From Minisyncoccia bacterium (GTDB lineage Bacteria; Patescibacteriota; Minisyncoccia; Phycocordibacterales; UBA9973): 64,000 bases of DNA. The translations under genes were made by a program, and so were the position numbers. This document shows positions 3,674 through 64,000 of this stretch, in pieces. The DNA is taken from NCBI GenBank assembly GCA_965662335.1, contig CBFIGQ010000047.1, forward strand, positions 13,131 through 77,130, read 5' to 3'. The notes under the pieces are model-generated. The model saw nothing but the letters and a program-made list of their open reading frames with translations, was not told where the DNA came from and ran no database searches. Every line of letters begins with the position of its first letter. The stretch's first letter is position 1.

Positions 3674-3834
3674 GAACTACAAGAGTATATCACCGCTCTA
3701 AAGAGAAAACCATTGATTTATAAGGATTATTTGGACACGTCTCATAGATTGTGTAATCAGTCTATGTCCGTTATAATCGTTTTATATAGTTTTTGTATAA
3801 GACATATCTAGGACAGATATATAAGACAATATAT

Positions 3835-4449
3835 ATGGATAAATCACTCGCAATTCAAGCACAAAATGATCGTGCTAAAGGACAGAAACTCGTTGGAGCG
3901 CTGTACCTCGTGACAGAGCACCTTGCCGAATCTGATCCTTTGAGACAGAGAGTTCGCGCGCTCGCGCTTGCGCTTCTGCAGACATCTGAGCGGGTGAAGG
4001 CAGGAGAAGAGCTACTCACTCTGTTGGGTGCGGCAGTACTCGCGCGCACAATAAGTGAAAGAAATGTCTCACTTATTACGTACGAGCTACAGCTATATCT
4101 CCATACCCCTGATCAAGACTCGCAGACTCTGAGCAGTCTCTTTGAAAGACATCACGATGTCAAATCGGCAAGGTCACAGCCAAATAAAAGTCACACTTCT
4201 ATACATCAAGAACTTACTAGTAACACTGTCCAATACAAAACCAATACAAATAGTGACACTAAAAATAAAAGACAAGACCAGATACTGTCCTTTATCAATG
4301 ACCGTAAATCCGCAGCCATAAAAGACATTGCAACCCTCTTTCCTGAGGTGTCCGAAAAGACAATTCAGCGCGAACTCGGTACCCTTGTTGCGCTTGGAAA
4401 GATCAATAAACGGGGTAGTAAGCGCTGGAGTCTGTACATGGCAATTTAG
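3835..4449 (+). CDS. Putative transcriptional regulator with C-terminal winged-helix HTH
   Basis: C-terminal ~55 aa resemble DeoR-type HTH (SAAIKDIATLFPEVSEKTIQRELGTLVALGKI); start at MDKSLAIQ; remainder unknown. Confidence 0.4.
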   Translation: MDKSLAIQAQNDRAKGQKLVGALYLVTEHLAESDPLRQRVRALALALLQTSERVKAGEELLTLLGAAVLARTISERNVSLITYELQLYLHTPDQDSQTLSSLFERHHDVKSARSQPNKSHTSIHQELTSNTVQYKTNTNSDTKNKRQDQILSFINDRKSAAIKDIATLFPEVSEKTIQRELGTLVALGKINKRGSKRWSLYMAI

Positions 4450-4894
4450 GCTTTTGCTGTAAGGTTTTCAGTATGCACGCGTCACTACTAGTAGGTGGCA
4501 CCTGCCATTTCTTTTGCATCAAAAGAGACCCTTCGTAGCTACTAGGCGCTTTGTGCGCTTTGTGGTACTATTGAGGCTATCTTTTGCACCTCCACAAGAG
4601 GAGCAAAAGTATGGTGGTAGTTCCACCAGGACTGCTCGTTAAAAATCCTATAGCGACTTATACATTTATAAGATCGGTATGCTTTTTTGGCGGCAGTTCG
4701 GTTCGTTCACCTTCTGTAAAAAGAAGGCGTTCGATATCGGCCTTGTCGACACGGCAGATACTGCAGCTCGTTACTGCAGTCTGCAATTAGCTAACCCGTG
4801 GTATGTCCGGAGGTGATAAAGACTTCTTGGCACACTACAAACGCTTCATCTCATATATATAGTGAGCAAGCGATTACAAAGAATTAATTAAACT

Positions 4895-6889
4895 ATGAAA
4901 AAGACTTTTAAATTTCTCGTAGCTACCGTTGCACTCGTTGCTGTTATGGCAATCGGATCTGCAAAGGCAGCGTACGTTCACACTGGTCTTCTCAAAATGG
5001 GAATGACTAGTTCACAGGTTATGAGTCTTCAACAGACTCTTAACTCAAACGGCTTCTTGGTTTCTACTACCGGTGCTGGTTCTCCAGGAATGGAATCTAT
5101 GTACTTCGGTTCAAAGACCAAGTCAGCTGTAATGGCATTCCAGTCAGCAAAGGGACTCAAGGCTGACGGTATCGTTGGTGTTCAGACTGGTACAGCTCTC
5201 GCAGCTCTTACTGGTGGTTCAGTTGCGCTTCCAGCAGGTTGTACTTCAACTTCTGGCTACTCAACTACTACAGGTCAGCCATGTACATCAACAGCTAACT
5301 ACCCTGCAGGTTGTACTTCATCTGTTGGATACTCTCCAACAACTGGTCAGCCATGTAACGGTTCTACTAACGGTGGAACAAACGGTCCTCTTAGTGGTAC
5401 TGCTGGTGACATCACTGTTTCTTCATATAACTCAGGTCTTGAGACTCAAGTTGGTGAAGGAATGACTAACGCAAAGGTTGTCGGATTCGAAGTTGAGGCA
5501 GACGCTGGTTCAGATGTTTCTCTTAACTCTGTAAAGGTTACTCTCCAAAAGAGTAGTGGTCCAGGTTCAACTCGTCTTACACGATACGCTGACACTGTTT
5601 CTATTTGGGATGAAAACGGCAACAAAGTTGGTTCAGCTAGTGCATCTGACTTCTCTGAGTCATCAAACGTATACACTCGCTCAATCCCTCTTTCAAACGT
5701 TGTGATCCGAGCAGATCAAAAGATGCGTTTCTACGTAGCAGTATCTGCTGTTGATAACATTGACTCAAATGATCAGAGTACTTACTGGTCAGTAAAGGAA
5801 TCAGCTATCCGCTTTACAGATGCTTCAGGTGCTATCCTTACAACAGACTCATCTAATGACGTTAGTAAGACTTTCCAGTTCACTTCTCTTGCAACAGCTA
5901 GTGATGTAGAACTCAAGGTTAACCTTTCAAGTTCAAACCTCAAGGCTCAGACTGTAAAGGTGTCTACTACTGCTCAGACCAACAATGTTGAACTTCTTAA
6001 GTTCACTATGAAGGCACAAGGATCAAGTATGCACATCGATCAGATCCCAGTACTCCTCACTTCAGGAACTACTGGTGTATCTTCTGTAACTGGAAACGTT
6101 ACTCTTAAGATCGACGGACAGTCATACAGTGAATCAGTTTCTGGTTCTGGTACTGGTATTACCGTTCTCTTCAACGATCTCGGCCTCGACATCGCTGCAG
6201 ACGACACTATCACTGGTACTGTTACTGCTGACATCAACGCTCTTACAGGAAACTACGCTCAGGGAGAAACTCTCTACGCGTCTATCCCTTCATCATATGT
6301 AACCGCTACAAGTGGTAACTACATTGATGTTGAAGACAAGAACGGTGATCAGCTCGTAACTGGTGACCGATCAGGTTCAGCTATCGGTGAGGCTATGACC
6401 TTCCGATCAACTGGTGTAAACGTAGTAATGGGTTCTGCATCTATTGCATACACACCAAACAGTGGAAATACTGGTTCATATGACTCAGCTACTTACACAA
6501 TTCCTGTGTCTGTAACGTCATTCGGTAATACACTTTACCTTAGTCAGACTGTAGAGTTGGGATCAACTGTTACTGGATCAAACGCATTCGCAGTTGCATT
6601 CCAGAAGTCTTCAGCTCCATCTACAGACGTAGTATCAGGTGTTACAGCTACTTACACGCTTGCAACATCAGATGCTACTCTTGAGAGTGGTGCATACCGT
6701 CTTGACGATGGTCAAACCAAGCACTTCACAGTTACTGTTAACCTCTTCGGTGGAAACACTGCAGCGGCATACCGTGTAGCGCTCAAGCAGATCCAGACAT
6801 TTGCAACTTCTGCACTTGTAACTGGTACTAAGCAGACACTACTTCCTGTTGAACAGTTCCAGACTAACTACCAGAACATCATTAAATAA
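4895..6889 (+). CDS. Large secreted surface protein with N-terminal peptidoglycan-binding domain
   Basis: Signal peptide; PG_binding_1-like motif (AVMAFQSAKGLKADGIVGVQTGTAL); tandem Cys-containing repeats AGCTS..GYS.TTGQPC; long Ser/Thr/Val-rich beta-type region. Confidence 0.6.
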   Translation: MKKTFKFLVATVALVAVMAIGSAKAAYVHTGLLKMGMTSSQVMSLQQTLNSNGFLVSTTGAGSPGMESMYFGSKTKSAVMAFQSAKGLKADGIVGVQTGTALAALTGGSVALPAGCTSTSGYSTTTGQPCTSTANYPAGCTSSVGYSPTTGQPCNGSTNGGTNGPLSGTAGDITVSSYNSGLETQVGEGMTNAKVVGFEVEADAGSDVSLNSVKVTLQKSSGPGSTRLTRYADTVSIWDENGNKVGSASASDFSESSNVYTRSIPLSNVVIRADQKMRFYVAVSAVDNIDSNDQSTYWSVKESAIRFTDASGAILTTDSSNDVSKTFQFTSLATASDVELKVNLSSSNLKAQTVKVSTTAQTNNVELLKFTMKAQGSSMHIDQIPVLLTSGTTGVSSVTGNVTLKIDGQSYSESVSGSGTGITVLFNDLGLDIAADDTITGTVTADINALTGNYAQGETLYASIPSSYVTATSGNYIDVEDKNGDQLVTGDRSGSAIGEAMTFRSTGVNVVMGSASIAYTPNSGNTGSYDSATYTIPVSVTSFGNTLYLSQTVELGSTVTGSNAFAVAFQKSSAPSTDVVSGVTATYTLATSDATLESGAYRLDDGQTKHFTVTVNLFGGNTAAAYRVALKQIQTFATSALVTGTKQTLLPVEQFQTNYQNIIK

Positions 6890-22160: not shown

Positions 22161-22840
22161 TCCTGTCCCTCTGGTTATCTTCAAATAACTGCAGGAGAGG
22201 AGACAGTAGTACTGGATCAGCTCGAGCGGTCGAGCGAAGTCTGGTACGAACCCGCCTGATTCTCGGAGAGAGCTCTGGCGGGCATGATTTCTAGATTTCC
22301 TAATAGGAAATCAAGAGCATATGGTGGATGCCTAGGTTCTACATGGCGATGAAAGACGCGGGAGGCGGCGATACGCTTCGGGGAGGTGCCTACAAACCTT
22401 TGATCCGGAGATTTCTGAATGGGGAAACCCAATAGAGTAAACCTCTATTATCCCGACACATAAGTGGTCGGGGAGCGCACCCAGGGAAGTGAAACATCTC
22501 AGTACCTGGAGGAAAAGAAAAAAATGTTATGTATATAACGACATTCCCTAAGTAGCGGCGAGCGAAAAGGGACAAGCCCAAACCGGTGCATCATGGAGAC
22601 AATAAATTTATTTGTTGTCTCCATGATGCACCGGGGTTGTAAGGCAAAAGCGTCAATTTATTGAGAAGAGTTACAAAATGTATGTATAGAAGAAGTTGTT
22701 GGAAACCAACGCCATAGTGGGTGATAGCCCCGTAGTCGAAATGCATATATCTCTTTTGCTTTTGTTCTTGAGTACTTCCGGACACGAATAGCCGGGAGGA
22801 ATCCGCCAGAACTAACTGGTAAGGCTAAATACATTGTAGA

Positions 22841-22883
<43 letters not shown>

Positions 22884-24371
22884 TCCGAAAGGAGGGTGAA
22901 ATAGTACTGAAACCATATGCTTACAAGGAGTCGGAGCGGGTATTTATATCCGTCACGGCGTGCCTATTGAAGAATGAGCCAACGAGTTAATCTGTGCGGC
23001 TTGGCTAAGGTGTAAAGCACCGGAGCCGTAGGGAAACCAAGTGTGAATAGCGCGCAATTGGTCGTACAGATTAGACCCGAAGCCAGGTGAGCTATCCATG
23101 AGCAGGGTGAAGTTTGTCGAAAGACAGATGGAGGCCCGAACCGGTAAATCGTACAACGTTTTCGGATGACTTGTGGATTGGAGTGAAAAGCTAATCGAAC
23201 CTGGTAATAGCTGGTTCTCTCCGAAATAGCTTTAGGGTTAGCGTCACGTGTTCCCTTTGGGGGTAGAGCACTGGAAAGTTTCGACAGGGAGCAATCTCGC
23301 GACACTTATCAAACTCCGAATACCAAAGGTTAAGAACGTGGCAGTTAGTCTACGGGGGCTAAGCTCCGTCAGACAAAAGGGAAACAGCCCAGATCTCTAA
23401 ATAAGGTCCCTAAATCTGCACTCAGTACATCATAAGGATGTGAGATTTCTCTGACAATGAGGAAGTTGGCTTAGAAGCAGCCATCTTTTAAAGAAAGCGT
23501 AACAGCTCACTCATCGAGAGATCTTGCGCCGCAGATAATCGGGGTTAAGTGCAGTACCGAATTTGAGGGCTTGTAGATTTCATAAAGGAAAGAAAATTTT
23601 GGCGTGAGAAAGATTGGATACCAGATTGGCTCCACTTCTTTCTCTGCCAATCTAATTCCTTTTTTTATGAAATCTATAAGCGGTAGGAGAGTATTCCACT
23701 CTTGCTGTGAAGGCAAAGGCGTGAGCCATGCTGGAGCGTGTGGAAGTAAGAATGTTGGCACAAGTAACCGCAAGTCGGGTGAGAAACCCGGCCGCCGAAA
23801 GACTAAGGTTTCCTGGGTAACGGTTATCGTCCCAGGGTTAGTCGGGGCCTAAGGTGATGGCGAGAGCCGCAACCGATGGACAGTGGGTTAATATTCCCAC
23901 ACTTCTATTGTATTCGATGGAGGGACGAAGGGTAGTAACATATGCCTCTTATTGGATTGAGGTAGACATAGAGCGCAGGTAGGATAGGTAAATCCGTCTT
24001 ACAATACTGTCAACTATGGCTCGTGCGAAGCTACGGCTTAGCGAAGATATGTGAGCACGCTTCCGAGAAAAGCTTCTAAGATTAGTACAGTAGAACCCGT
24101 ACCGTAAACCGACACAGGTAGTCAGGTCGAGTAGACCAAGGCGAACGAGTGAGGGATCCCCAAGGAACTCGGCAAAAAAGCAGCCGTAACTTCGGGATAA
24201 GGCTTGCCGGCAGCAATGTCGGCCGCAGCGAAAGTATTCCTGGCAACTGTTTATCAAAAACACAGCTCCCTGCGAACTCGTAAGAGGATGTATAGGGGGT
24301 GACACCTGACCAATGCCAGAAGGTTAACCAACGGTGGTGCGATTATATCAAGCTGGCTGTTGTAAGCCCTG

Positions 24372-24406
<35 letters not shown>

Positions 24407-24615
24407 TTTGCATTTCAACCTCGTTGGAATGCAAAACGGACTAGGACTGTCTATAGAAAACGATAAACAATTTAAAAGAATAATCATTACATTTCAAGCT
24501 ACCTTTCATAGCGTAATCTATGAATAGTCCATTGTGATTAACGAGAGACCAACGTCACAGTTCCGACCCTTGTAAAAGGAGGAATAAGAGAGAGTCCAAC
24601 TGAGAGGAATAGTTG
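24407..24615 (+). other. About 209-nt ORF-less insertion in 23S between CCTAAGGT and AGCGAAATTCC (E. coli ~1917 region); group I intron-like
   Basis: Flanking exon sequence is contiguous in other 23S rRNAs; upstream exon ends in T and insert ends in G, as for group I introns; no ORF. Confidence 0.5.
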
Positions 24616-25274
24616 AGCGAAATTCCTTGTCGGGTAAGTTCCGACGCGCACGAATGGTGTAATGACTGGGAAACTGTCTCGGGGATTTGCTCGGTGAAAA
24701 TACAGTACCGGTGAAGATGCCGGTTACCTGCAGTTAGACGAAAAGACCCTAGAAGCTTTACTACAACTTGGTATTGGGCATGTTCTAGTACTACGTAGCA
24801 TAGGAAGGAGACTTTGAAGCGCCGCTTTCGGGCCGCGTGGAGTCGTCAGTGAAATACTTCTTTGTACGTGGGCATGTCCTAACCAGCGCGGCAAAAACGA
24901 GCTGGAACAGTGCCTGGTGGGTAGTTTTACTGGGGCGGTATCCTCCCAAAAAGTAACGGAGGAGTTCAAAGGTAGGCTAGGCGCGAATGGAAACCGTGCC
25001 GATAGTGCAATGGCATAAGCCTGCTTGACTGTAAGGGGGACATCCCGAGCAGGTGCGAAAGCAGAACATAGTGAACCGACAATTCGCATTAGATGCGGTT
25101 GAAGATTAACGGATAGAAGCTACTCTAGGGATAACAGGCTAGTTCCGCCTAAGCGTCCATAGCGACGGCGGAGTTCGGCACCTCGATGTCGGCTCACCTT
25201 ATCCTGGGGCTGGAGAAGGTCCCAAAGGTTTGGCTGTTCGCCAATTAAAAAGGTACGCGAGCTGGGTTCAGACC

Positions 25275-25715
25275 GTGAGGAAGTGAAAAGTACTACCATG
25301 AAGTGTACGGAACGAAGGGATACGACTCTTGTTTGCGTGATACTCATGAGTTCAAGTCTCTTTTGACTGACTCACCGTCTGAATCCTTGAGGAAATTTTT
25401 TGAAATGTTTTTTATAAAAACATTCACATATAAAATATGTTTTAGTCTTTTCGTCTAATAAGGTTAAAGCTCGTGTTCTCTTCTGCAAAGAGTACATGAG
25501 AGAAAGATAGTAATAAAAGAAACCAATCAGTTACGGCGGCTTCATATGGAGACATATGAAGTATGCTCAACTAATATCGGTGAAGGCCTTATGGGTTAAC
25601 ACCGAGGGAACCGTAAGGGCCCGTAGAGACTACAACTACGTTGAGGCACTCATGAAGTGCAAGATATAGTCCATTCCATACAGTAATGTGTGAATAAGAA
25701 GCGTAAGACAGGTTG
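25275..25715 (+). other. About 440-nt ORF-less insertion in 23S between GGGTTcAGAcC and CGTaAGACAGgTtGG (E. coli ~2585-2593 region); group I intron-like
   Basis: Conserved flanks interrupted at a classical rRNA intron site; exact boundaries ambiguous by a few nt; no ORF above 60 aa. Confidence 0.5.
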
Positions 25716-26042
25716 GTCTCCTATCTACTGCAGGCGTTGATACTTGAAGAAATTCGCTCCTAGTACGAGAGGACCGGAGTGAACGAACCTCTGGTGTACG
25801 GGCTCTAGTGCCAACTGGACCGCCCGGTAGCTATGTTCGGAATGGATAACCTCTGAAAGCATCTAAGAGGGAAGCCAGTTCTAAGATGAGGTATCGTCAA
25901 GGGCCGTAAGAGATGATTACGTTGATAGGCACCAAGTGTACGCGTAGTAATGCGCTCAGCTGAGGTGTACTAATTGCCCGACTCCTATTAGGAAATCTGG
26001 AAATCATAAATAAGAAAAGAAAAAATAATTCGAGCGCACTGT

Positions 26043-26151
<109 letters not shown>

Positions 26152-56087: not shown

Positions 56088-56269
56088 AGGGGTCGCTCTC
56101 CAAACTCTCTGGAAACTCTCCGGGGATTTGAGGGCATTCTTTAACAATTGCATACATGCATTAAAAGAATGCGAGTCAACACAATCTATTTATAGAAAAT
56201 GGATAACAATAATCCAGTGACAAGGGAATCATTTTTCTCTTGTCTCGATCTAAGTCACATTTGTGACTT

Positions 56270-57880
<1,611 letters not shown>

Positions 57881-58067
57881 TGAGATAGTCTCGTATACGT
57901 CATGTATACGGATTGAAACGGTTGACTCATCTTTTTGATGAGAAGGTTGTGGTAAGTGACCTATGTACTTACTCGCTGCCCAAGCGTTAGAAAGGCAAAA
58001 ATCCTTTGCGTGAATCTATAGAGCACGGAAAGGTTAGATCGAGACAATAGAAAGATGGTACTATATC

Positions 58068-58511
58068 TTGGTGACTCGCATTCTTACTGCATGTATCGCA
58101 CTTGTCGCAATCGGAGCATTCCTTGGAATGCTCCTTTTGCGTTCTCAAGTAGTCCCGTCTATTCGTACCCGTACGACCAGTATTCCCGTGCAGCTTGCGC
58201 GTACTACGAGCGAGCTCAAGCAAGGTCTCTCTGGTACCTCGTCGCTACCAGTCGGCACCGGCATGCTCTTTATATTTGAGCACCCAGGCGGGTATGGGTT
58301 TTGGATGAAGGATATGCAGTATCCACTCGATATTGTCTGGATGGATGAGAACCTCAGAGTGGTAGAGATAACACAACATCTCACTCCCGAGACTTTTCCT
58401 GAAGTGACTTATCCACAGGTTCCGGTCAAATACGTACTCGAACTCAATGCGGACACCGCAAAACAAGGTGGTTTTGTAATAGGAGAGAAAGTAAAATTGA
58501 GGGGCTACTAG
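58068..58511 (+). CDS. DUF192 (COG1430) family protein, membrane anchored
   Basis: N-terminal TM; conserved MLFIFEHPGGYGFWMKDMQYPLDIVWMDENLRVVEI core. Confidence 0.6.
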   Translation: MVTRILTACIALVAIGAFLGMLLLRSQVVPSIRTRTTSIPVQLARTTSELKQGLSGTSSLPVGTGMLFIFEHPGGYGFWMKDMQYPLDIVWMDENLRVVEITQHLTPETFPEVTYPQVPVKYVLELNADTAKQGGFVIGEKVKLRGY

Positions 58512-58659
58512 ATTTTGTTCGAAAACGATAACAAATGCTCTGTATTTATAATGCTCATCGAACGTGGTGCTTTACAATGTATGCAAACTATTTTCTGTAG
58601 ATGAATTTCGATGCAAAAATTCTGGCGAAGCCTTCGAATTTTGTATACTTGATACATTC

Positions 58660-59931
58660 ATGTCTATCAATCAAGTACGCAAACGAAGTGGAATGGTGGT
58701 TGAGTACGACCGTGCACGCATAGAGTCTGCTATTTCTCGCGCATACCAGGCCTCAAAGGTCTTGCTTGATATTGTGTCACTCTCAGACCTTGTTGATGCA
58801 GTCGAAGTGATGATCAACGACGCTTTCCCACAAGGCCATATCCCAGAAGTTGAAGAAATCCAGAACATCGTCGAAAAGGCAATTGCTGCAAAAGGTGATT
58901 TTGAGGTTGCAAAGGCATATATTTTGTATCGTGAGGAGCGCAATAAGGAACGACGTCGTGATATCTTTAAAAAGCGTGTGTACCTCAAGCCTTATGAATA
59001 CCCCGAACTCTATGAGTACGTAAACGCTATTCGACACTCATACTGGATCCATACTGAGTTCAACTTTGTGGGCGATGTGCAAAATTTCAAGGTCAATGTT
59101 GATGAAGTAGAGCGCAGTGCGATCAAAAACTCCATGCTCGCCATCGCGCAAATCGAAGTTGCGGTTAAAACATTTTGGGGTGATATCTACAAAAAGCTCC
59201 CAAAACCAGAGATTGGAGCAGTGGGAGCGACCTTTGCTGAAAGTGAAGTGCGCCACACCGATGCGTACGCGCACCTCCTTGAAATTCTTGGACTTAATGA
59301 GGCTTTCAAATCAATCGGAGAGATTCCTGCGCTTATGAAGCGTGTGCAGTACCTAGAAAAGTCGCTTTCAAATGCACGCAGCGAAGACAATAGAGACTAC
59401 TCTCAAGCAATACTTCTATTTTCACTCTTTATAGAGCACGTATCACTTTTCTCACAGTTCTTGGTGATGATGTCGTTTAATAAGTACAAAAACCTCTTTA
59501 AAGGCATCAGTAATGCGGTCGAAGCAACGAGCAAAGAAGAGCAAATTCATGGACTCTTTGGTATTGAAGTTATCAATATTATTAAGGAAGAACACCCTGA
59601 GTGGTTTGATGATACCTTTGAGGAAGATGTTATCAAGCTGTGCGAAGAAGCATTTGAATCAGAGCAGCAAGTCGTTGAGTGGATCTTTGAAAAGGGCGAG
59701 CTCGAGTTCCTCCCCAAAGCCGTCGTCATTGAGTTCATCAAACATCGCTTTAACAATTCTCTCCAGAGTATCGGTATCCGCAAGATATTTGAGACAGACG
59801 AGTCGCTACTCAAGGAGTCGGATTGGTTCTATGATGAAGTGATTGCAACGAAACACGGTGACTTCTTCAACAAGAAATCCATCAACTACAACAAAAAGAG
59901 TAAGAGTATTACCAGCGATGATTTATTTTAA
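58660..59931 (+). CDS. nrdB: Ribonucleotide reductase small subunit (NrdB-like, ferritin-like di-metal) with N-terminal ATP-cone
   Basis: ATP-cone VRKRSGMVVEYDRARIESAISRA at N-terminus; R2 motifs FAESEVRHTDAYAHLL, FIEHVSLFSQF, SKEEQIHGLFG. Confidence 0.75.
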   Translation: MSINQVRKRSGMVVEYDRARIESAISRAYQASKVLLDIVSLSDLVDAVEVMINDAFPQGHIPEVEEIQNIVEKAIAAKGDFEVAKAYILYREERNKERRRDIFKKRVYLKPYEYPELYEYVNAIRHSYWIHTEFNFVGDVQNFKVNVDEVERSAIKNSMLAIAQIEVAVKTFWGDIYKKLPKPEIGAVGATFAESEVRHTDAYAHLLEILGLNEAFKSIGEIPALMKRVQYLEKSLSNARSEDNRDYSQAILLFSLFIEHVSLFSQFLVMMSFNKYKNLFKGISNAVEATSKEEQIHGLFGIEVINIIKEEHPEWFDDTFEEDVIKLCEEAFESEQQVVEWIFEKGELEFLPKAVVIEFIKHRFNNSLQSIGIRKIFETDESLLKESDWFYDEVIATKHGDFFNKKSINYNKKSKSITSDDLF

Positions 59932-59937
59932 AATAGT

Positions 59938-61656
59938 ATGTATTGGCTAAACGAAAACAGTAGAAAATTCTTGGCAAAAGGCTATCTCATGAACGGACAG
60001 TCTGCCGAAGACCGTATCCGTGAGATTGCAACCATTGCAGAAAAGCATCTCGGAAAGCCTGGTTTTGCCGATAAGTTTTATGACTATATGTCTCGCGGCT
60101 TTTACTCACTTGCAACTCCTATCTGGGCCAACTATGGGCACACTCGGGGGCTTCCGATCAGTTGTTTCGGATCATACGTTGCAGATGACATGTCTCGTAT
60201 ACTGTACACGCATGCAGAAGTCGGCATGATGACCAAGTACGGAGGTGGTACTTCTGCGTACTTTGGAGACCTCAGACCACGCGGTGCTGAGATCAAGGGT
60301 AACGGACACTCGTCTGGGTCTGTGCACTTCATGGAGCTCTTTGATGGACTCATCAACATTGTCTCGCAGGGCACGGTGCGCCGTGGCCACTGCGCGCCCT
60401 ACCTACCTGTTGAACACGGAGACATTGATGAATTTTTAAATATTGGAAAAGAGGGACATCCGATCCAGGAGTCTACCTATGCGATCACAGTTGGAGACGA
60501 GTGGCTCAAGGCAATGGTTGGAGGCGACCAAGCAAAGCGCGCTATTTGGGCCAAGGTTATCCAGCGCCGCACTGAGATAGGCTACCCATACATTCTCTTT
60601 AGCGATACTGTTAATAACAATACCGTAGATGTCTACAAAGACAAGGGGGTGCGTATCTACGGCAGCAACCTCTGTTCTGAGATCTGTTTACCAACTGCGG
60701 ATGATATATCCTTTGTGTGCTGCCTTTCTTCAATAAACCTTCGCCACTACGAAGAATGGAAAGACACCGATGCAGTCGAAACACTCACCATGTTCCTCGA
60801 CACGGTGATCGGAGAATTCGTCGAACGCCTCGAAGCAATGCGAGACAGCAGCGACTCGCAAAAGCAATCTGCCTTTTACTTCATGCAACGCGCACACAAG
60901 TTCGCCAAAGAGCACCGCGCGCTTGGCCTCGGAGTGCTCGGGTGGCATACACTGCTTCAGGAGCGCAATATTCCATTCGAAAGCGCCGAAGCAGCCGCAC
61001 TTAACGAAGAGATCTTCAAGCTTCTCAAAGAAAAGGCATACGCAGCGTCTACGCAGATGGCCAAAGACTACGGAGAACCAGAAGTCCTCAAAGGCTACGG
61101 CCGCCGCAACACCACACTTCTTGCGGTTGCACCAACCACCTCAAGTGCATTTATTCTTGGGCAAGTTTCGCAAGGCATTGAGCCGCTTATGAGTAACGCC
61201 TTTGTGAAAGACGTCGACAAAATGAAAGTCACTATCAAAAATCCGACACTTGTTGCACTTCTTGAAGAAAAGGGAATGAATACTCCTGAGATCTGGAACA
61301 GTATTCGTGACAACGACGGTTCAGTGCAGCACCTCGACGGACTCACCGATCATGAAAAGAAAGTCTTCCGAACCTTTGCCGAGATAGATCAAAAGGCAAT
61401 CATTGACCAAGCTGCGACACGTCAGCAGTACATCGACCAAGCGCAGTCGCTCAACATCATGATCGATCCAAGTATTCCAGCGAAGGATCTCAACGCGCTC
61501 TATCTCTACGCATGGGAGAAAGGTATCAAGACCCTCTACTACCAGCACTCTATGAATGCAGCGCAGCAGTTTGGTCGCAAGAAGCTCCAAGAGCAAGATG
61601 CCAAGAAGCCCAAAGTCATGGTGATGGGGGAGGTGTGTGTAAACTGCGAGGCGTAA
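59938..61656 (+). CDS. nrdA: Ribonucleotide reductase large subunit (class I alpha) lacking ATP-cone
   Basis: Catalytic motifs PISCF, GGGTSAYFGDLRPRGAEIKG, NLCSEI, C-terminal CVNCEA redox cysteines; 572 aa. Confidence 0.85.
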   Translation: MYWLNENSRKFLAKGYLMNGQSAEDRIREIATIAEKHLGKPGFADKFYDYMSRGFYSLATPIWANYGHTRGLPISCFGSYVADDMSRILYTHAEVGMMTKYGGGTSAYFGDLRPRGAEIKGNGHSSGSVHFMELFDGLINIVSQGTVRRGHCAPYLPVEHGDIDEFLNIGKEGHPIQESTYAITVGDEWLKAMVGGDQAKRAIWAKVIQRRTEIGYPYILFSDTVNNNTVDVYKDKGVRIYGSNLCSEICLPTADDISFVCCLSSINLRHYEEWKDTDAVETLTMFLDTVIGEFVERLEAMRDSSDSQKQSAFYFMQRAHKFAKEHRALGLGVLGWHTLLQERNIPFESAEAAALNEEIFKLLKEKAYAASTQMAKDYGEPEVLKGYGRRNTTLLAVAPTTSSAFILGQVSQGIEPLMSNAFVKDVDKMKVTIKNPTLVALLEEKGMNTPEIWNSIRDNDGSVQHLDGLTDHEKKVFRTFAEIDQKAIIDQAATRQQYIDQAQSLNIMIDPSIPAKDLNALYLYAWEKGIKTLYYQHSMNAAQQFGRKKLQEQDAKKPKVMVMGEVCVNCEA

Positions 61657-61699
61657 AAAGTGATATAATCAGTCTATTACTAAATAAATCAATAAATAT

Positions 61700-62020
61700 A
61701 TGGGAATGGAAGGGTTTCCTTCAATGGAAAACAAGAAAGATATACCAGATAATATTTCTCAAGATAAGAAAGAGCGTTTTGAGAGCGGGGAGTGGAAAAT
61801 GATGAATACAGAGCCGATTCATCTAACGCAAGAAGAGTTAAATTTAGTTGAGAATGGAAAGGTAGATAGTCCTGAGGTTCAAAAACTTCTTGCCGAAAAA
61901 GGTATAGAATTTGGTGACGGTCACTTTTATAGAGTCAATGATGGAGCTATTATGGAGTTTGGATCTGATATGGGTACTTCGTTGATCACCAATAGCGATG
62001 AAATTATAAGTAGTAGTTAG
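61700..62020 (+). CDS. Hypothetical protein
   Basis: 106 aa, acidic, no domain; lies in first copy of the duplicated spacer. Confidence 0.3.
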   Translation: MGMEGFPSMENKKDIPDNISQDKKERFESGEWKMMNTEPIHLTQEELNLVENGKVDSPEVQKLLAEKGIEFGDGHFYRVNDGAIMEFGSDMGTSLITNSDEIISSS

Positions 62021-62053
62021 TATTGTAATTTTCAGGAAAATTTGTATAGTGTC

Positions 62054-62109
62054 TTTGTTGTACCGAACGATCGCGCTTGGCTCGCAAGAGTCAGGTGAGG
62101 AAAGTCCGA
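62054..62109 (+). ncRNA. Truncated, diverged second copy of the RNase P RNA 5' end (P1-P4 5' strand only)
   Basis: tttgttgtaccgaacgatcgcg-[8-bp hairpin, gcaa loop]-tgaggaaagtccga aligns with the RNase P RNA start at 63481-63531 and shows compensatory changes in the P3 hairpin; no P4 3' strand (ACAGAAnnCGGCTTA) follows. Confidence 0.5.
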
Positions 62110-62241
62110 TATGTCTATAGAGCTTGCAAATTGTTCACCAGAAGGGTACACTCAAAGTGTACCCTTCTGTCGCTTCGGTGGCAGGACGCGAAACCGCAAC
62201 ATATGTTGCGGTTTCTGCATTTTGAGCCTATGCTTTAAGGT

Positions 62242-62865
62242 ATGAAAATGAACGTCTATATCGACAGTTTCAACCTTTATTATGGCTGCCTCAAAAAGAA
62301 TTCATCAGTGAAATGGCTTGATATCTCCAAGCTGTGTCAGTTTCTTTTCCCAAAGGATACTGTCCAAAAAATAAAATACTATACAGCTGCGGTTAAACTT
62401 CGCCCAAATGATCCTGATACCGATAAGCCCAATAGACAACAAATCCATTTCAGAGCACTCCGTACTTTACCAACATTGGAATTATTTTATGGAACATTCC
62501 TTTCCCATACTGTTTCTATGAAGCGGGCGGATGGAAAGGGGTATGCTGATGTGATCAAGACGGAAGAGAAAGGAACTGACGTGAGTATAGCGACTCATTT
62601 GGTACATGATGCTCACAATAAAGACTTCGAAATAGCTGTGGTGGTATCAAATGATTCCGATCTTGTCGAACCAATCAGGATTGTTACTCAAGAACTTAAA
62701 CTCCCGGTGATTGTGGTAAGTCCGTTTGAACGAAACTCGATAGAATTGAAAAAGATAGCAAGCTCGGTGCGCCATATTCGTAATGGTGTGCTTCGGGTCA
62801 GTCAGTTTCCATTTGAACTTGAAGATGAAGTGGGGAAGTTTACAAAACCAGATACTTGGAAATAA
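62242..62865 (+). CDS. NYN-domain nuclease (LabA/YacP-like, PF01936)
   Basis: N-terminal VYIDSFNLYY and central/C-terminal GTDVSIATHLVHDA...AVVVSNDSDLVEPI motifs of the NYN/PIN-like fold. Confidence 0.7.
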   Translation: MKMNVYIDSFNLYYGCLKKNSSVKWLDISKLCQFLFPKDTVQKIKYYTAAVKLRPNDPDTDKPNRQQIHFRALRTLPTLELFYGTFLSHTVSMKRADGKGYADVIKTEEKGTDVSIATHLVHDAHNKDFEIAVVVSNDSDLVEPIRIVTQELKLPVIVVSPFERNSIELKKIASSVRHIRNGVLRVSQFPFELEDEVGKFTKPDTWK

Positions 62866-62872
62866 ATCCATG

Positions 62873-62983
62873 CAACAATTCGGCCGCAAGAAGCTTCAAG
62901 AGCAGGATGCCAAGAAGCCAAAGGTGATGGTGATGGGAGAGGTGTGCGTGAACTGTGAAGCGTAATCGCAATCAATAAATAAG
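62873..62983 (+). repeat. Diverged duplicate of the nrdA 3' end (last ~31 codons plus about 17 nt downstream)
   Basis: About 85% nt identity to 61565-61698; encodes the identical peptide QQFGRKKLQEQDAKKPKVMVMGEVCVNCEA with synonymous differences only. Confidence 0.7.
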
Positions 62984-63013
62984 AAAAACCACAGATATTA
63001 TTCTGCGGTTTTT
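62984..63013. terminator. Hairpin with flanking A/T runs (candidate bidirectional terminator)
   Basis: aaaaaccacag-atattatt-ctgcggttttt. Confidence 0.5.
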
Positions 63014-63019
63014 AAATTT

Positions 63020-63277
63020 TCAGGGAATGGCCCTTAATTTTCTGTAAGAAGGGTTGCCATCAAATTGAGATTTATCAATAAAAGCAATTGAAGACTCACC
63101 TTCAGCACTTCCGGTATCAATGATAACTTCTGTATCATCACATACCCATATTGCCTCATCTGCACAAAGATGTTTTTTATCTTTAAGATAAAACTGGAGA
63201 ATAGTGTTTGCTCTGAGGTCATTTAATCCAGAATAGACATCGGTGATTGTATAACAAAGGTCGCTTTCATGCAGCAT
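63020..63277 (-). CDS. Hypothetical protein
   Basis: 85 aa, no domain; in second copy of spacer. Confidence 0.3.
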   Translation of the reverse strand: MLHESDLCYTITDVYSGLNDLRANTILQFYLKDKKHLCADEAIWVCDDTEVIIDTGSAEGESSIAFIDKSQFDGNPSYRKLRAIP

Positions 63278-63448
63278 TTTGTTTTCTACAAAGTGATTAT
63301 CTATCTTTAAGTGAGATTTGTTTTGAAAGCTCCTTAAAATAAAAATGGTAATTGCTTTGATAACTTCAGAATTATGAGGGCCATCTTTTTTGAAAATGTT
63401 TTTGCATAGTTGTATAATTTGAAATTATTATATCATTTAATAATAATA

Positions 63449-63477
63449 TTGTCAATATAATCTAAATATGCTATAAA
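63449..63477 (+). promoter_or_regulatory. Sigma70-type promoter for RNase P RNA
   Basis: TTGTCA, 17-nt spacer, TATAAA immediately upstream of the RNase P RNA 5' end. Confidence 0.55.
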
Positions 63478-63480
63478 TCC

Positions 63481-63806
63481 TTTGTTGCACCGCACGATCG
63501 CGTCCGCCAGCTGGCGGATGAGGAAAGTCCGAACACACAACAGTTCATTCTGTACAGGTAGCGGGTAATGCCCGTCTGGCGCAAGCCAAGGACTGCGAAC
63601 AGTGACGAATCTTTGATGAGTAAGGGGTCTTGACCTGAGCTTGTCGAAGGGTGAAACGGCTAAATGTCTACCCGTGTGCAAGGCCGTGCCAGATATCCAC
63701 GTGGTCTCTGGAGTGCTGCTACAGGTGTTTGGTAACAAACATCGCAGATAAATGATCGAACTATCAATTGATAGCAACAGAATTCGGCTTACGAGTGCAA
63801 CATCAT
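63481..63806 (+). ncRNA. rnpB: RNase P RNA (bacterial type)
   Basis: P4 strands GAGGAAAGTCCGaAC and ACAGAAttCGGCTTAC, AAGGGTGAAAcGG motif, P1 pairing tgttgcac/gtgcaaca; about 325 nt. Confidence 0.8.
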
Positions 63807-63807
63807 G

Positions 63808-63841
63808 AAAAACTTCTGCTTTACGCAGAAGTTTTTCTTTT
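63808..63841 (+). terminator. Intrinsic terminator after rnpB
   Basis: aacttctgc-tttac-gcagaagtt followed by T5. Confidence 0.85.
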
Positions 63842-63923
63842 GAGTGGATTGACTTTTACAAAAAATTTTTCTATACTCTGTAGGTGAGTTAGATTCCACA
63901 AGTTTTTAACACACAAATGCCCG

Positions 63924-63956
63924 ACAAAATCCCCGCAAGGGGATTTTGTCTTTGTG
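63924..63956 (+). terminator. Intrinsic terminator-like hairpin
   Basis: acaaaatcccc-gcaa-ggggattttgt followed by ctttgt. Confidence 0.5.
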
Positions 63957-64000
63957 GTGTTGTGTTTATAATAGATTTTTGTATACTAAAAGAGTTCGTG

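Follow-up and report, generated by a model that had tools for sequence, protein, structure and literature searches.

Diverged copies of nrdA and rnpB ends around an HEC-09-type NYN cassette in a Minisyncoccia genome

Why should a small nuclease gene lie between displaced pieces of both of its neighbors? The question is raised by a 64,000-nucleotide (nt) stretch of DNA from a Minisyncoccia bacterium (GCA_965662335.1, contig CBFIGQ010000047.1, positions 13,131-77,130, forward strand), hereafter the window. Here a gene for a NYN-domain protein lies between nrdA, encoding the class I ribonucleotide reductase alpha chain, and rnpB, the gene for ribonuclease P (RNase P) RNA. A diverged copy of the nrdA 3' end follows the NYN gene and a truncated copy of the rnpB 5' end precedes it, and we refer to these two fragments as ghosts. 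The initial annotation ascribed the arrangement to a single Campbell-type integration or to a tandem duplication invaded at its junction. At a probability of roughly 0.72, we consider both ghosts to be recombination scars, left when DNA from related lineages displaced the ends of resident genes, rather than working parts, and probably the product of two events and not of one circle.

Anatomy of the duplicated gene ends

The last 94 nt of nrdA (61563-61656; all features are on the plus strand unless stated) are repeated without gaps at 62872-62965 with 85% identity, the second copy beginning 7 nt past the NYN stop codon. Both copies encode the same 30 residues, QQFGRKKLQEQDAKKPKVMVMGEVCVNCEA. 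As the initial annotation had noticed, the differences are synonymous only (14 of 14, with no nonsynonymous change), where random changes in this tail would be synonymous in 18.5% of cases (P ~6e-11). Its extension of the repeat into some 17 nt of 3' flank is weak; the match there is marginal and consists only of an 11-nt ATCAATAAATA common to both copies at a shifted offset.

Upstream of the NYN gene, the ghost of rnpB (62023-62109) comprises a promoter-like site (62023-62050, TTGTAA-16-TATAGT), a region that is also similar between the two rnpB copies, and the first 57 nt of an RNase P RNA, including P1, P2, P3, and the 5' strand of P4, truncated after GAGGAAAGTCCGA. The intact class A gene lies at 63482-63807 (Rfam RF00010, 117.9 bits against a threshold of 100) and ends in a terminator found by terminator scan at 63807-63837. 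Between the two copies, 21 of 23 positions are identical along the P1/P2 strand (62053-62075 versus 63480-63502), and TGAGGAAAGTCCGA at 62096-62109 is identical to 63519-63532. The ghost retains the invariant GAGGAAAGUCCGA, and its P3 is a different yet sound hairpin, CUUGGCUC-GCAA-GAGUCAGG, of the type carried by the ORF106 allele described below. When positions 62055-62112 were searched alone, RF00010 was the sole match (model positions 1-58, 19.6 bits, E 3.7e-5), in agreement with the earlier proposal that the rnpB 5' end recurs upstream with its P3 hairpin preserved. A score of 19.6 bits against the gathering threshold of 100 marks a truncated copy lacking the complete catalytic core, and its absence from an Rfam scan of the 2.4-kb region is what would be expected of an internal truncated copy.

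A structure of this kind could in principle be an assembly chimera of coexisting strains. Contig L001 (ERR15116721), identical to window positions 61581-62935, breaks within both nrdA-tail copies, pointing to branching k-mers, and so to a sample with several related nrdA tails. Against a chimera, two Logan contigs from other runs, L113 (SRR27197491, 10 kb) and L114 (SRR27197495, 5.8 kb), are collinear with window positions 58000-64000 at 99.9% identity, with six substitutions and no gaps, and span both outer junctions and the full structure. Furthermore, neither repeat pair contains an exact run longer than 14 nt, so an assembler using k-mers of 31 or larger could not have jumped between copies, and an analogous arrangement of NYN gene and ghost tail was assembled in eight contigs of a related family (L009). 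The locus is real and not a misassembly, which disposes of the concern over strain mixtures raised at the outset, and the likelihood of a chimera is negligible. One of the six differences in 6 kb, G to A at 61627 in L113 and L114, changes Gly to Arg in the C-terminal tail of NrdA.

Donor-type alleles at the nrdA-rnpB junction of relatives

In relatives, the ancestral gene order is 16S-DUF192-nrdB-nrdA-(none or one orphan open reading frame)-rnpB, and that of the window is DUF192, nrdB, nrdA, ORF106, NYN, ORF85(-), and rnpB, the part from nrdA to rnpB being as the initial annotation had it. The full-length nrdA (59938-61656, 572 amino acids; Pfam PF02867 and PF00317) has its nearest homologs at 89% identity and equal length, and the named matches in the protein collection are Nomurabacteria. 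Uninterrupted nrdA-rnpB junctions, which had been anticipated, were found in contigs L002-L008 and L110-L112; none of them carries a NYN gene or a ghost. The spacer is empty in L006 (75 nt), and the orphan reading frames of the window, L002, L006, L007, L009, L107, and L110, with one per lineage or none (ORF106, ORF85(-), ORF78, ORF74(-), ORF156(-), ORF169(-), and ORF120(-)), are mutually unrelated. The nrdA-rnpB spacer is a hypervariable recombination hot spot.

Two of these spacer alleles meet in the window. ORF106 (61700-62020), without a match in Pfam, NCBIfam, and PADLOC profile searches, has homologs that form a single cluster, and the only ones sit between nrdA and a full rnpB (120.8 bits) in L110-L112, where no NYN gene is present. 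Window positions 61107-62109 are collinear with these contigs, and homology ends exactly at 62109, the last base of the rnpB ghost; hence the stump stems from an ORF106-type allele whose rnpB was cut off. The nrdA tail at 61563-61656 (copy 1), the functional 3' end of the gene, is contiguous with the same haplotype, a linkage of tail and ORF106 also found in L108-L112. Because the public metagenome contigs L108 (~640-700) and L109 (3' end) run into Illumina adapter sequence, AGATCGGAAGAGCGTCGTGTAGGGAAAGAGTGT, just past the rnpB start, their ends are artefactual and uninformative on what follows ORF106, a point settled by L110-L112.

The second nrdA tail (copy 2, 62872-62965) has a different context. 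It is followed by a bidirectional terminator hairpin (62984-63013), found by terminator scan, whose homolog in the NYN-less contig L007 stands immediately behind nrdA, so copy 2 is the former nrdA end of the resident, still in its native setting. Beyond it lie ORF85(-), the orphan reading frame of the second spacer allele (63020-63277, minus strand), and the intact rnpB. A perfect sigma-70 promoter with a TG extension (TTGACA-17-TATAAT, 63455-63427, minus strand) faces ORF85(-), back to back with the rnpB promoter.

These relationships weigh heavily against the idea that the segment from the nrdA 3' end to the rnpB 5' end was tandemly duplicated in situ, received the NYN gene at the junction, and diverged in place. 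Gene order alone would be compatible with such a history. The two spacers, ORF106 on one side and the terminator with ORF85(-) on the other, are however unrelated, and the two halves have their matches in two different alleles, which relatives carry independently of each other. Neither could neutral decay of a dead copy yield 14 of 14 synonymous differences at near-saturated synonymous sites. We reject in situ duplication as extremely improbable.

The distribution of the ghosts among NYN-bearing relatives bears on the number of events. L107, with a NYN 87% identical to that of the window, and the L009 family (89%, eight contigs) share the order leader-NYN-ghost nrdA tail-terminator-ORF(-)-rnpB and have no rnpB ghost. 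The join between the NYN gene and the nrdA tail falls at varying nrdA positions (-93, -87, and -57), and ghost tails are confined to NYN-bearing alleles, being absent from 5 of 5 NYN-less alleles.

A single Campbell-type integration would require a circle carrying nrdA tail, ORF106, rnpB 5' end, and NYN gene to enter an nrdA-ORF85(-)-rnpB chromosome by one crossover. The order of nrdA tail, first spacer, rnpB stump, NYN gene, second tail, second spacer, and full rnpB is exactly what a crossover within the nrdA tail yields, copy 2 retains the native terminator while copy 1 is joined to incoming DNA, and direct repeats flank the cassette at many loci. Such a circle would nevertheless presuppose a NYN gene with rnpB nt 57 on one side and an nrdA tail on the other, which is the very arrangement in question. 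The NYN/nrdA-tail junction region is common to L107 and the L009 family, both of which lack the rnpB stump, and since the two ghosts are distributed differently among relatives, a circle bearing both is less economical than two events. Moreover, no integrase is present, arms with a longest identical run of 14 nt are a poor RecA substrate, and no circular form was seen, L001 ending in two different copies and not in an overlap. A single circle is therefore an unlikely explanation, and that part of the initial annotation probably gives way to two events.

For gene-end displacement speak the native context kept by the displaced copy, the occurrence elsewhere (L108-L112) of the allele that supplied the incoming end, and the ortholog-like divergence of the copies. 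Together with the NYN-less donor-type alleles, this divergence upholds the earlier suggestion that the copies came from a related lineage. The setting would be a Nomurabacteria-like lineage of the candidate phyla radiation (CPR) in which nrdA and rnpB are neighbors across a hot-spot spacer, and the cassette would move between related genomes along with pieces of its former surroundings. In an older step, common to L107 and the L009 family, DNA with an nrdA 3' end and the cassette would have recombined into nrdA, its tail becoming the working end of the gene and the resident tail and terminator being shifted downstream of the NYN gene. This could have happened by gene-end displacement, with a homologous junction at one end and an illegitimate one at the other, or through a circle that entered by a single crossover. 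In a later step, restricted to the lineage of the window, the region upstream of the NYN gene would have been swapped for an nrdA-ORF106-rnpB allele through a homologous left junction within nrdA and an illegitimate right junction that joined nt 57 of rnpB to the NYN promoter, so that a stump of 57 nt remained of this rnpB, together with its promoter. Linear DNA with one homologous anchor and one illegitimate join would suffice, and a circular intermediate would not be needed; we infer here the sequence of the events, the involvement of host recombination, and the linear or circular state of the DNA.

The rearrangement may also have rewired transcription. Now without its own terminator, nrdA probably reads into ORF106, and the promoter of the rnpB ghost would be directed into the cassette, where the leader hairpin at 62190-62215 should halt most transcripts ahead of the NYN gene. 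The old nrdA terminator would now end the transcripts of both NYN and ORF85(-).

Two further arrangements of rnpB were seen among relatives. In L007 (4022-4575; also L008), rnpB reaches 554 nt because one of its peripheral helices accommodates an 80-amino-acid GIY-YIG reading frame (4237-4479) with CCACGTGG on either side; the gene scores 99.2 bits, just below the Rfam threshold. The more distant L025 (1-9102) keeps the 16S-ribonucleotide reductase-rnpB-...-SecA neighborhood with a class II reductase and an inverted rnpB; its NYN is 80% identical and has the leader, with no ghost fragments.

The NYN cassette and its flanking repeats

The NYN gene (62242-62865) encodes 207 amino acids matching Pfam PF01936 over residues 3-174 (43.7 bits against a cut-off of 24.2). 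D8, D113, D138, and D140, together with E108 and E109, are invariant in 37 homologs, consistent with a predicted metal-binding acidic site. An AlphaFold model (predicted local distance difference test 91) has as its best Protein Data Bank (PDB) folds 2qip (E 5e-9) and the MARF1 NYN domains 5yaa and 6fdl, whereas a PDB sequence search with the NYN profile gave no match. On this model, the fold is the PIN-like alpha/beta fold of a MARF1-type RNase and not that of a recombinase. Between the repeats, ORF106 and NYN are the only reading frames, and neither contains a recombinase, integrase, or transposase domain by Pfam, NCBIfam, or PADLOC.

The protein also matches the PADLOC HEC-09 profile over its full length (E 6.6e-44, positions 3-203 of 203). 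HEC-09 was proposed as a defence gene since it is embedded in Hma loci and wedged between genes of other systems, and it is reported to have given no protection against the phages tested (bioRxiv 10.1101/2024.01.29.577857). The window protein resembles it in being a single NYN domain with a MARF1-like fold and a full-length match to the hidden Markov model, but lies between nrdA and rnpB, outside any defence system and not within an Hma, BREX, or restriction-modification-type locus. At the locus of a distant homolog, L098, the cassette stands just upstream of a 959-amino-acid reading frame, and the duplicated piece (3765-3832 and 5191-5258) is the 5' end of that frame. Its N-terminus (KLIEVALPL...AREKSIRHGHP) may be that of a DUF1156-type methylase; if so, L098 would hold an embedded HEC-09 whose insertion left a scar that can still be seen.

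The NYN gene is part of a compact unit of ~750 nt that consists of a promoter, a structured leader RNA, and the coding sequence. In nearly all of the 100-odd loci examined, both a sigma-70-type promoter and a ~60-nt leader stand ahead of the reading frame. The putative window promoter (62124-62152, TTGCAA-17-TACACT) aligns with consensus TTGACA/TATAAT promoters that homologous cassettes have in the same place, and was not called by a consensus promoter scan. In the leader (62146-62233), a UUCG-capped hairpin is joined by a conserved GCG linker to a terminator-like second hairpin (62190-62215), which the terminator scan also found, and a U tract follows. Compensatory changes occur in 17 of its 20 predicted pairs in an alignment of 71 sequences, and the window copy scores 80.1 bits (E 1.4e-22) with the covariance model (R1), which finds the leader once per locus, beside the NYN gene (window; L009, L017, and L025-L107). 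No credible second copy occurs in the window or in 274 kb of flanks, the extra hits being weak reverse-strand echoes of the same sites or having E of at least 0.1. No Rfam 15 family matches the leader, and literature searches returned nothing relevant on a NYN leader RNA or a NYN RNA antitoxin. In two distant homologs (L094, 293-385; L105, 2996-3088), the leader motif lies upstream of the NYN gene on the opposite strand. The leader could be an attenuator or an RNA antitoxin, and the cassette would most likely be an RNase module that regulates itself or is addictive, with the leader attenuating or neutralizing the NYN protein.

Homologs of the NYN protein number more than 6,500, many on contigs of 1-2 kb; a scan of genome contigs with the single NYN protein returned only two loci. 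Around 64 non-redundant NYN loci, we searched the 1.5 kb to either side for direct repeats that were 30 nt or longer and 80% identical or more. Such repeats flanked 12 of the 64, compared with 1 of 251 controls (0 of 144 in the window and 1 of 107 at other loci; Fisher P 2e-8), and a translated search added three weaker pairs. The repeats range from 35 to ~390 nt and represent 3' ends of upstream genes (window, L009, L074, and L104), 5' ends of downstream genes (L050, L048, and L098), or intergenic DNA. Pooled over seven loci, coding repeats differ by 39.5 synonymous and 10.5 nonsynonymous changes (pS, the proportion of synonymous sites that differ, 0.51; pN, its nonsynonymous counterpart, 0.038; pN/pS 0.07). 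As this divergence is ortholog-like, the extra copies arrived from other lineages with the cassette and not by duplication and decay in place. NYN cassettes occur in many unrelated contexts, often between diverged gene-end duplicates, as expected from the original suspicion of a mobile cassette at gene ends.

The same annotation had called it unusual for a NYN gene to lie between fragments of a structured-RNA gene. We considered a functional link, with the NYN protein as a protein-only RNase P or the cassette targeting rnpB, and rejected it: rnpB is nearby only in the window, the L009 family, and L025, and the P4 motif was found in 0 of 80 NYN loci from the metagenome scan. The association is positional, not functional.

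Several points count against or limit the proposed history. The control positions of the survey were mostly core genes, and the enrichment of repeats may be a property of recently acquired DNA generally and not of this cassette. At nine loci, no more than 35 nt separate the NYN stop codon from the start of the downstream repeat, which is tidier than random illegitimate joins would suggest. The ghost tail encodes precisely the 30 residues of the resident, yet this exact tail occurs in 0 of the 120 closest NrdA proteins, and between the window and L107 the ghost tails differ by ~13%, compared with 24% for the NYN genes. The exact peptide match and the greater likeness of the ghosts than of the NYN genes hint at constraint or repeated refreshing, neither of which passive scars predict. 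The sampled relatives, at 70 to 90% nt identity, are too distant to place the crossovers in nrdA, so the order and number of events are deduced rather than mapped; a site-by-site comparison of the tails and a sliding identity scan along nrdA were uninformative, as synonymous sites are saturated and no close relative is at hand. The putative illegitimate junctions lie at 62109/62110 and 62866-62872, where the sampled relatives offer no donor sequence in which to look for microhomology.

Part of this evidence might be read as active mobility, with the NYN protein, perhaps together with the leader RNA, promoting insertion at gene boundaries and the repeats as its footprint. The strong enrichment of repeats around the cassette, its compact and constant extent from the -35 box to the stop codon, the nine closely spaced downstream repeats, and ghost tails that seem more conserved than dead DNA would all fit. 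The variable length of the repeats, the unrelated target sequences, and the lack of terminal inverted repeats or shared end motifs do not, nor does a predicted MARF1-type RNase fold, and the variable parts of the leader are loops of 3-6 nt, too short to serve as guides. We also tried to define cassette ends from pairwise homology, which drops at ~-120 and at the stop codon, and discarded the result, since at ~80% identity constraint alone explains such sharp edges. Self-encoded insertion is very unlikely on this balance. We likewise considered whether the ghost tail is translated, alone or as a fusion to NYN, and dropped the idea: an ATG precedes the ghost in the window, but in L107 a stop codon does, and L009 has the ghost in another frame with respect to NYN.

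The identical tail, the likeness to L107, and the close downstream repeats suggest that ghosts are refreshed or constrained, like the homology arms of a cycling element. A bolder reading, which we consider unlikely, would make HEC-09-type NYN cassettes autonomous, recombinase-free selfish modules that spread by gene-end displacement and hold on by addiction, the leader acting as a type III-like antitoxin or attenuator and the displaced ends being kept coding-like as homology arms for the next transfer. If true, it would explain why NYN genes are embedded inside defence operons.

Elsewhere in the window, the 23S rRNA gene (22301-25992) is 3692 nt long against a 2925-nt model, indicating several insertions, and the strand of the gene has no reading frame of at least 90 amino acids there. 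In the 16S rRNA gene (56269-57880), 57 nt are inserted close to the 5' end; this gene is unlinked, 30 kb downstream of 23S-5S; positions 26043-26149 belong to the same rRNA set.

Known systems and the meaning of the scars

The locus is a recombination scar of a known general kind. Integrative elements that enter the 3' end of a tRNA, tmRNA, or protein gene bring a substitute for that end with them, leaving attL and attR. As with these, an intact gene was rebuilt from incoming sequence, the displaced native end stands at the far side as a direct repeat, target repeats lie at both ends, and empty sites occur in relatives (L002-L008 and L110-L112). Unlike them, the 1.2-kb insert has no integrase and no identical attL/attR core (85% identity overall, with the 14-nt run the longest), and the repeats of NYN loci vary in sequence and length from locus to locus. 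Transposons and insertion sequences differ in having a transposase, terminal inverted repeats, and target duplications of fixed length; here no transposase was found, repeat lengths vary from 35 to ~390 nt, and the ends have no motif in common. Insertion-duplication mutagenesis, in which a non-replicating circle enters a transformable bacterium by single crossover, likewise duplicates a homologous segment on both sides of the insert; there, the repeats are identical and the circle a laboratory construct, whereas repeats at NYN loci are 86-100% identical and derive from orthologs.

For the cassette itself, a close parallel is with type III toxin-antitoxin systems such as ToxIN, compact and mobile units in which a promoter, a short structured RNA of tandem repeats, and an intrinsic terminator precede an endoribonuclease gene with the ToxN/AbiQ fold. 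The predicted order of promoter, small RNA, terminator, and RNase gene is the same in the NYN cassette; the leader is in contrast a single RNA unit, and the protein has a NYN fold.

Displacement of gene ends is known from rhs, contact-dependent inhibition (CDI), and type VI secretion system (T6SS) effector-immunity loci, where the displacement of C-termini is attributed to homology-facilitated illegitimate recombination (PMC5361080; PMC3967940; Jackson et al. 2009, as cited in PMC5361080). At such loci, a conserved gene serves as the anchor for incoming DNA, which supplies it with a new 3' end together with cargo, the resident end becomes a downstream orphan, and arrays spread by ordinary homologous recombination without a recombinase (PMC5361080; PMC3967940). 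The window shares the anchored replacement end with cargo, the orphaned resident end, and the absence of a recombinase. It differs in that housekeeping nrdA or the RNA gene rnpB is displaced and not a polymorphic toxin, in that the replacement encodes the same peptide, so that nothing is diversified, and in that the cargo is a stand-alone NYN cassette; displacement of 5' ends also occurs among NYN loci.

The searched passages of the HEC-09 source mention neither a leader RNA nor flanking duplications (bioRxiv 10.1101/2024.01.29.577857), and taking these passages and our literature searches together, we found no description of the recurrent scars and leader RNA of this cassette. The double duplication in the window can be read as a record of two hypervariable-spacer alleles spliced around an imported cassette, in CPR bacteria, whose mechanisms of gene exchange are barely known. 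A diverged, synonymous-biased copy of a neighboring gene end beside an accessory gene would be a signature of recombinase-free acquisition, and one candidate defence family, HEC-09, bears this signature unusually often. The conserved structured RNA ahead of the family offers a concrete handle on what HEC-09 does.

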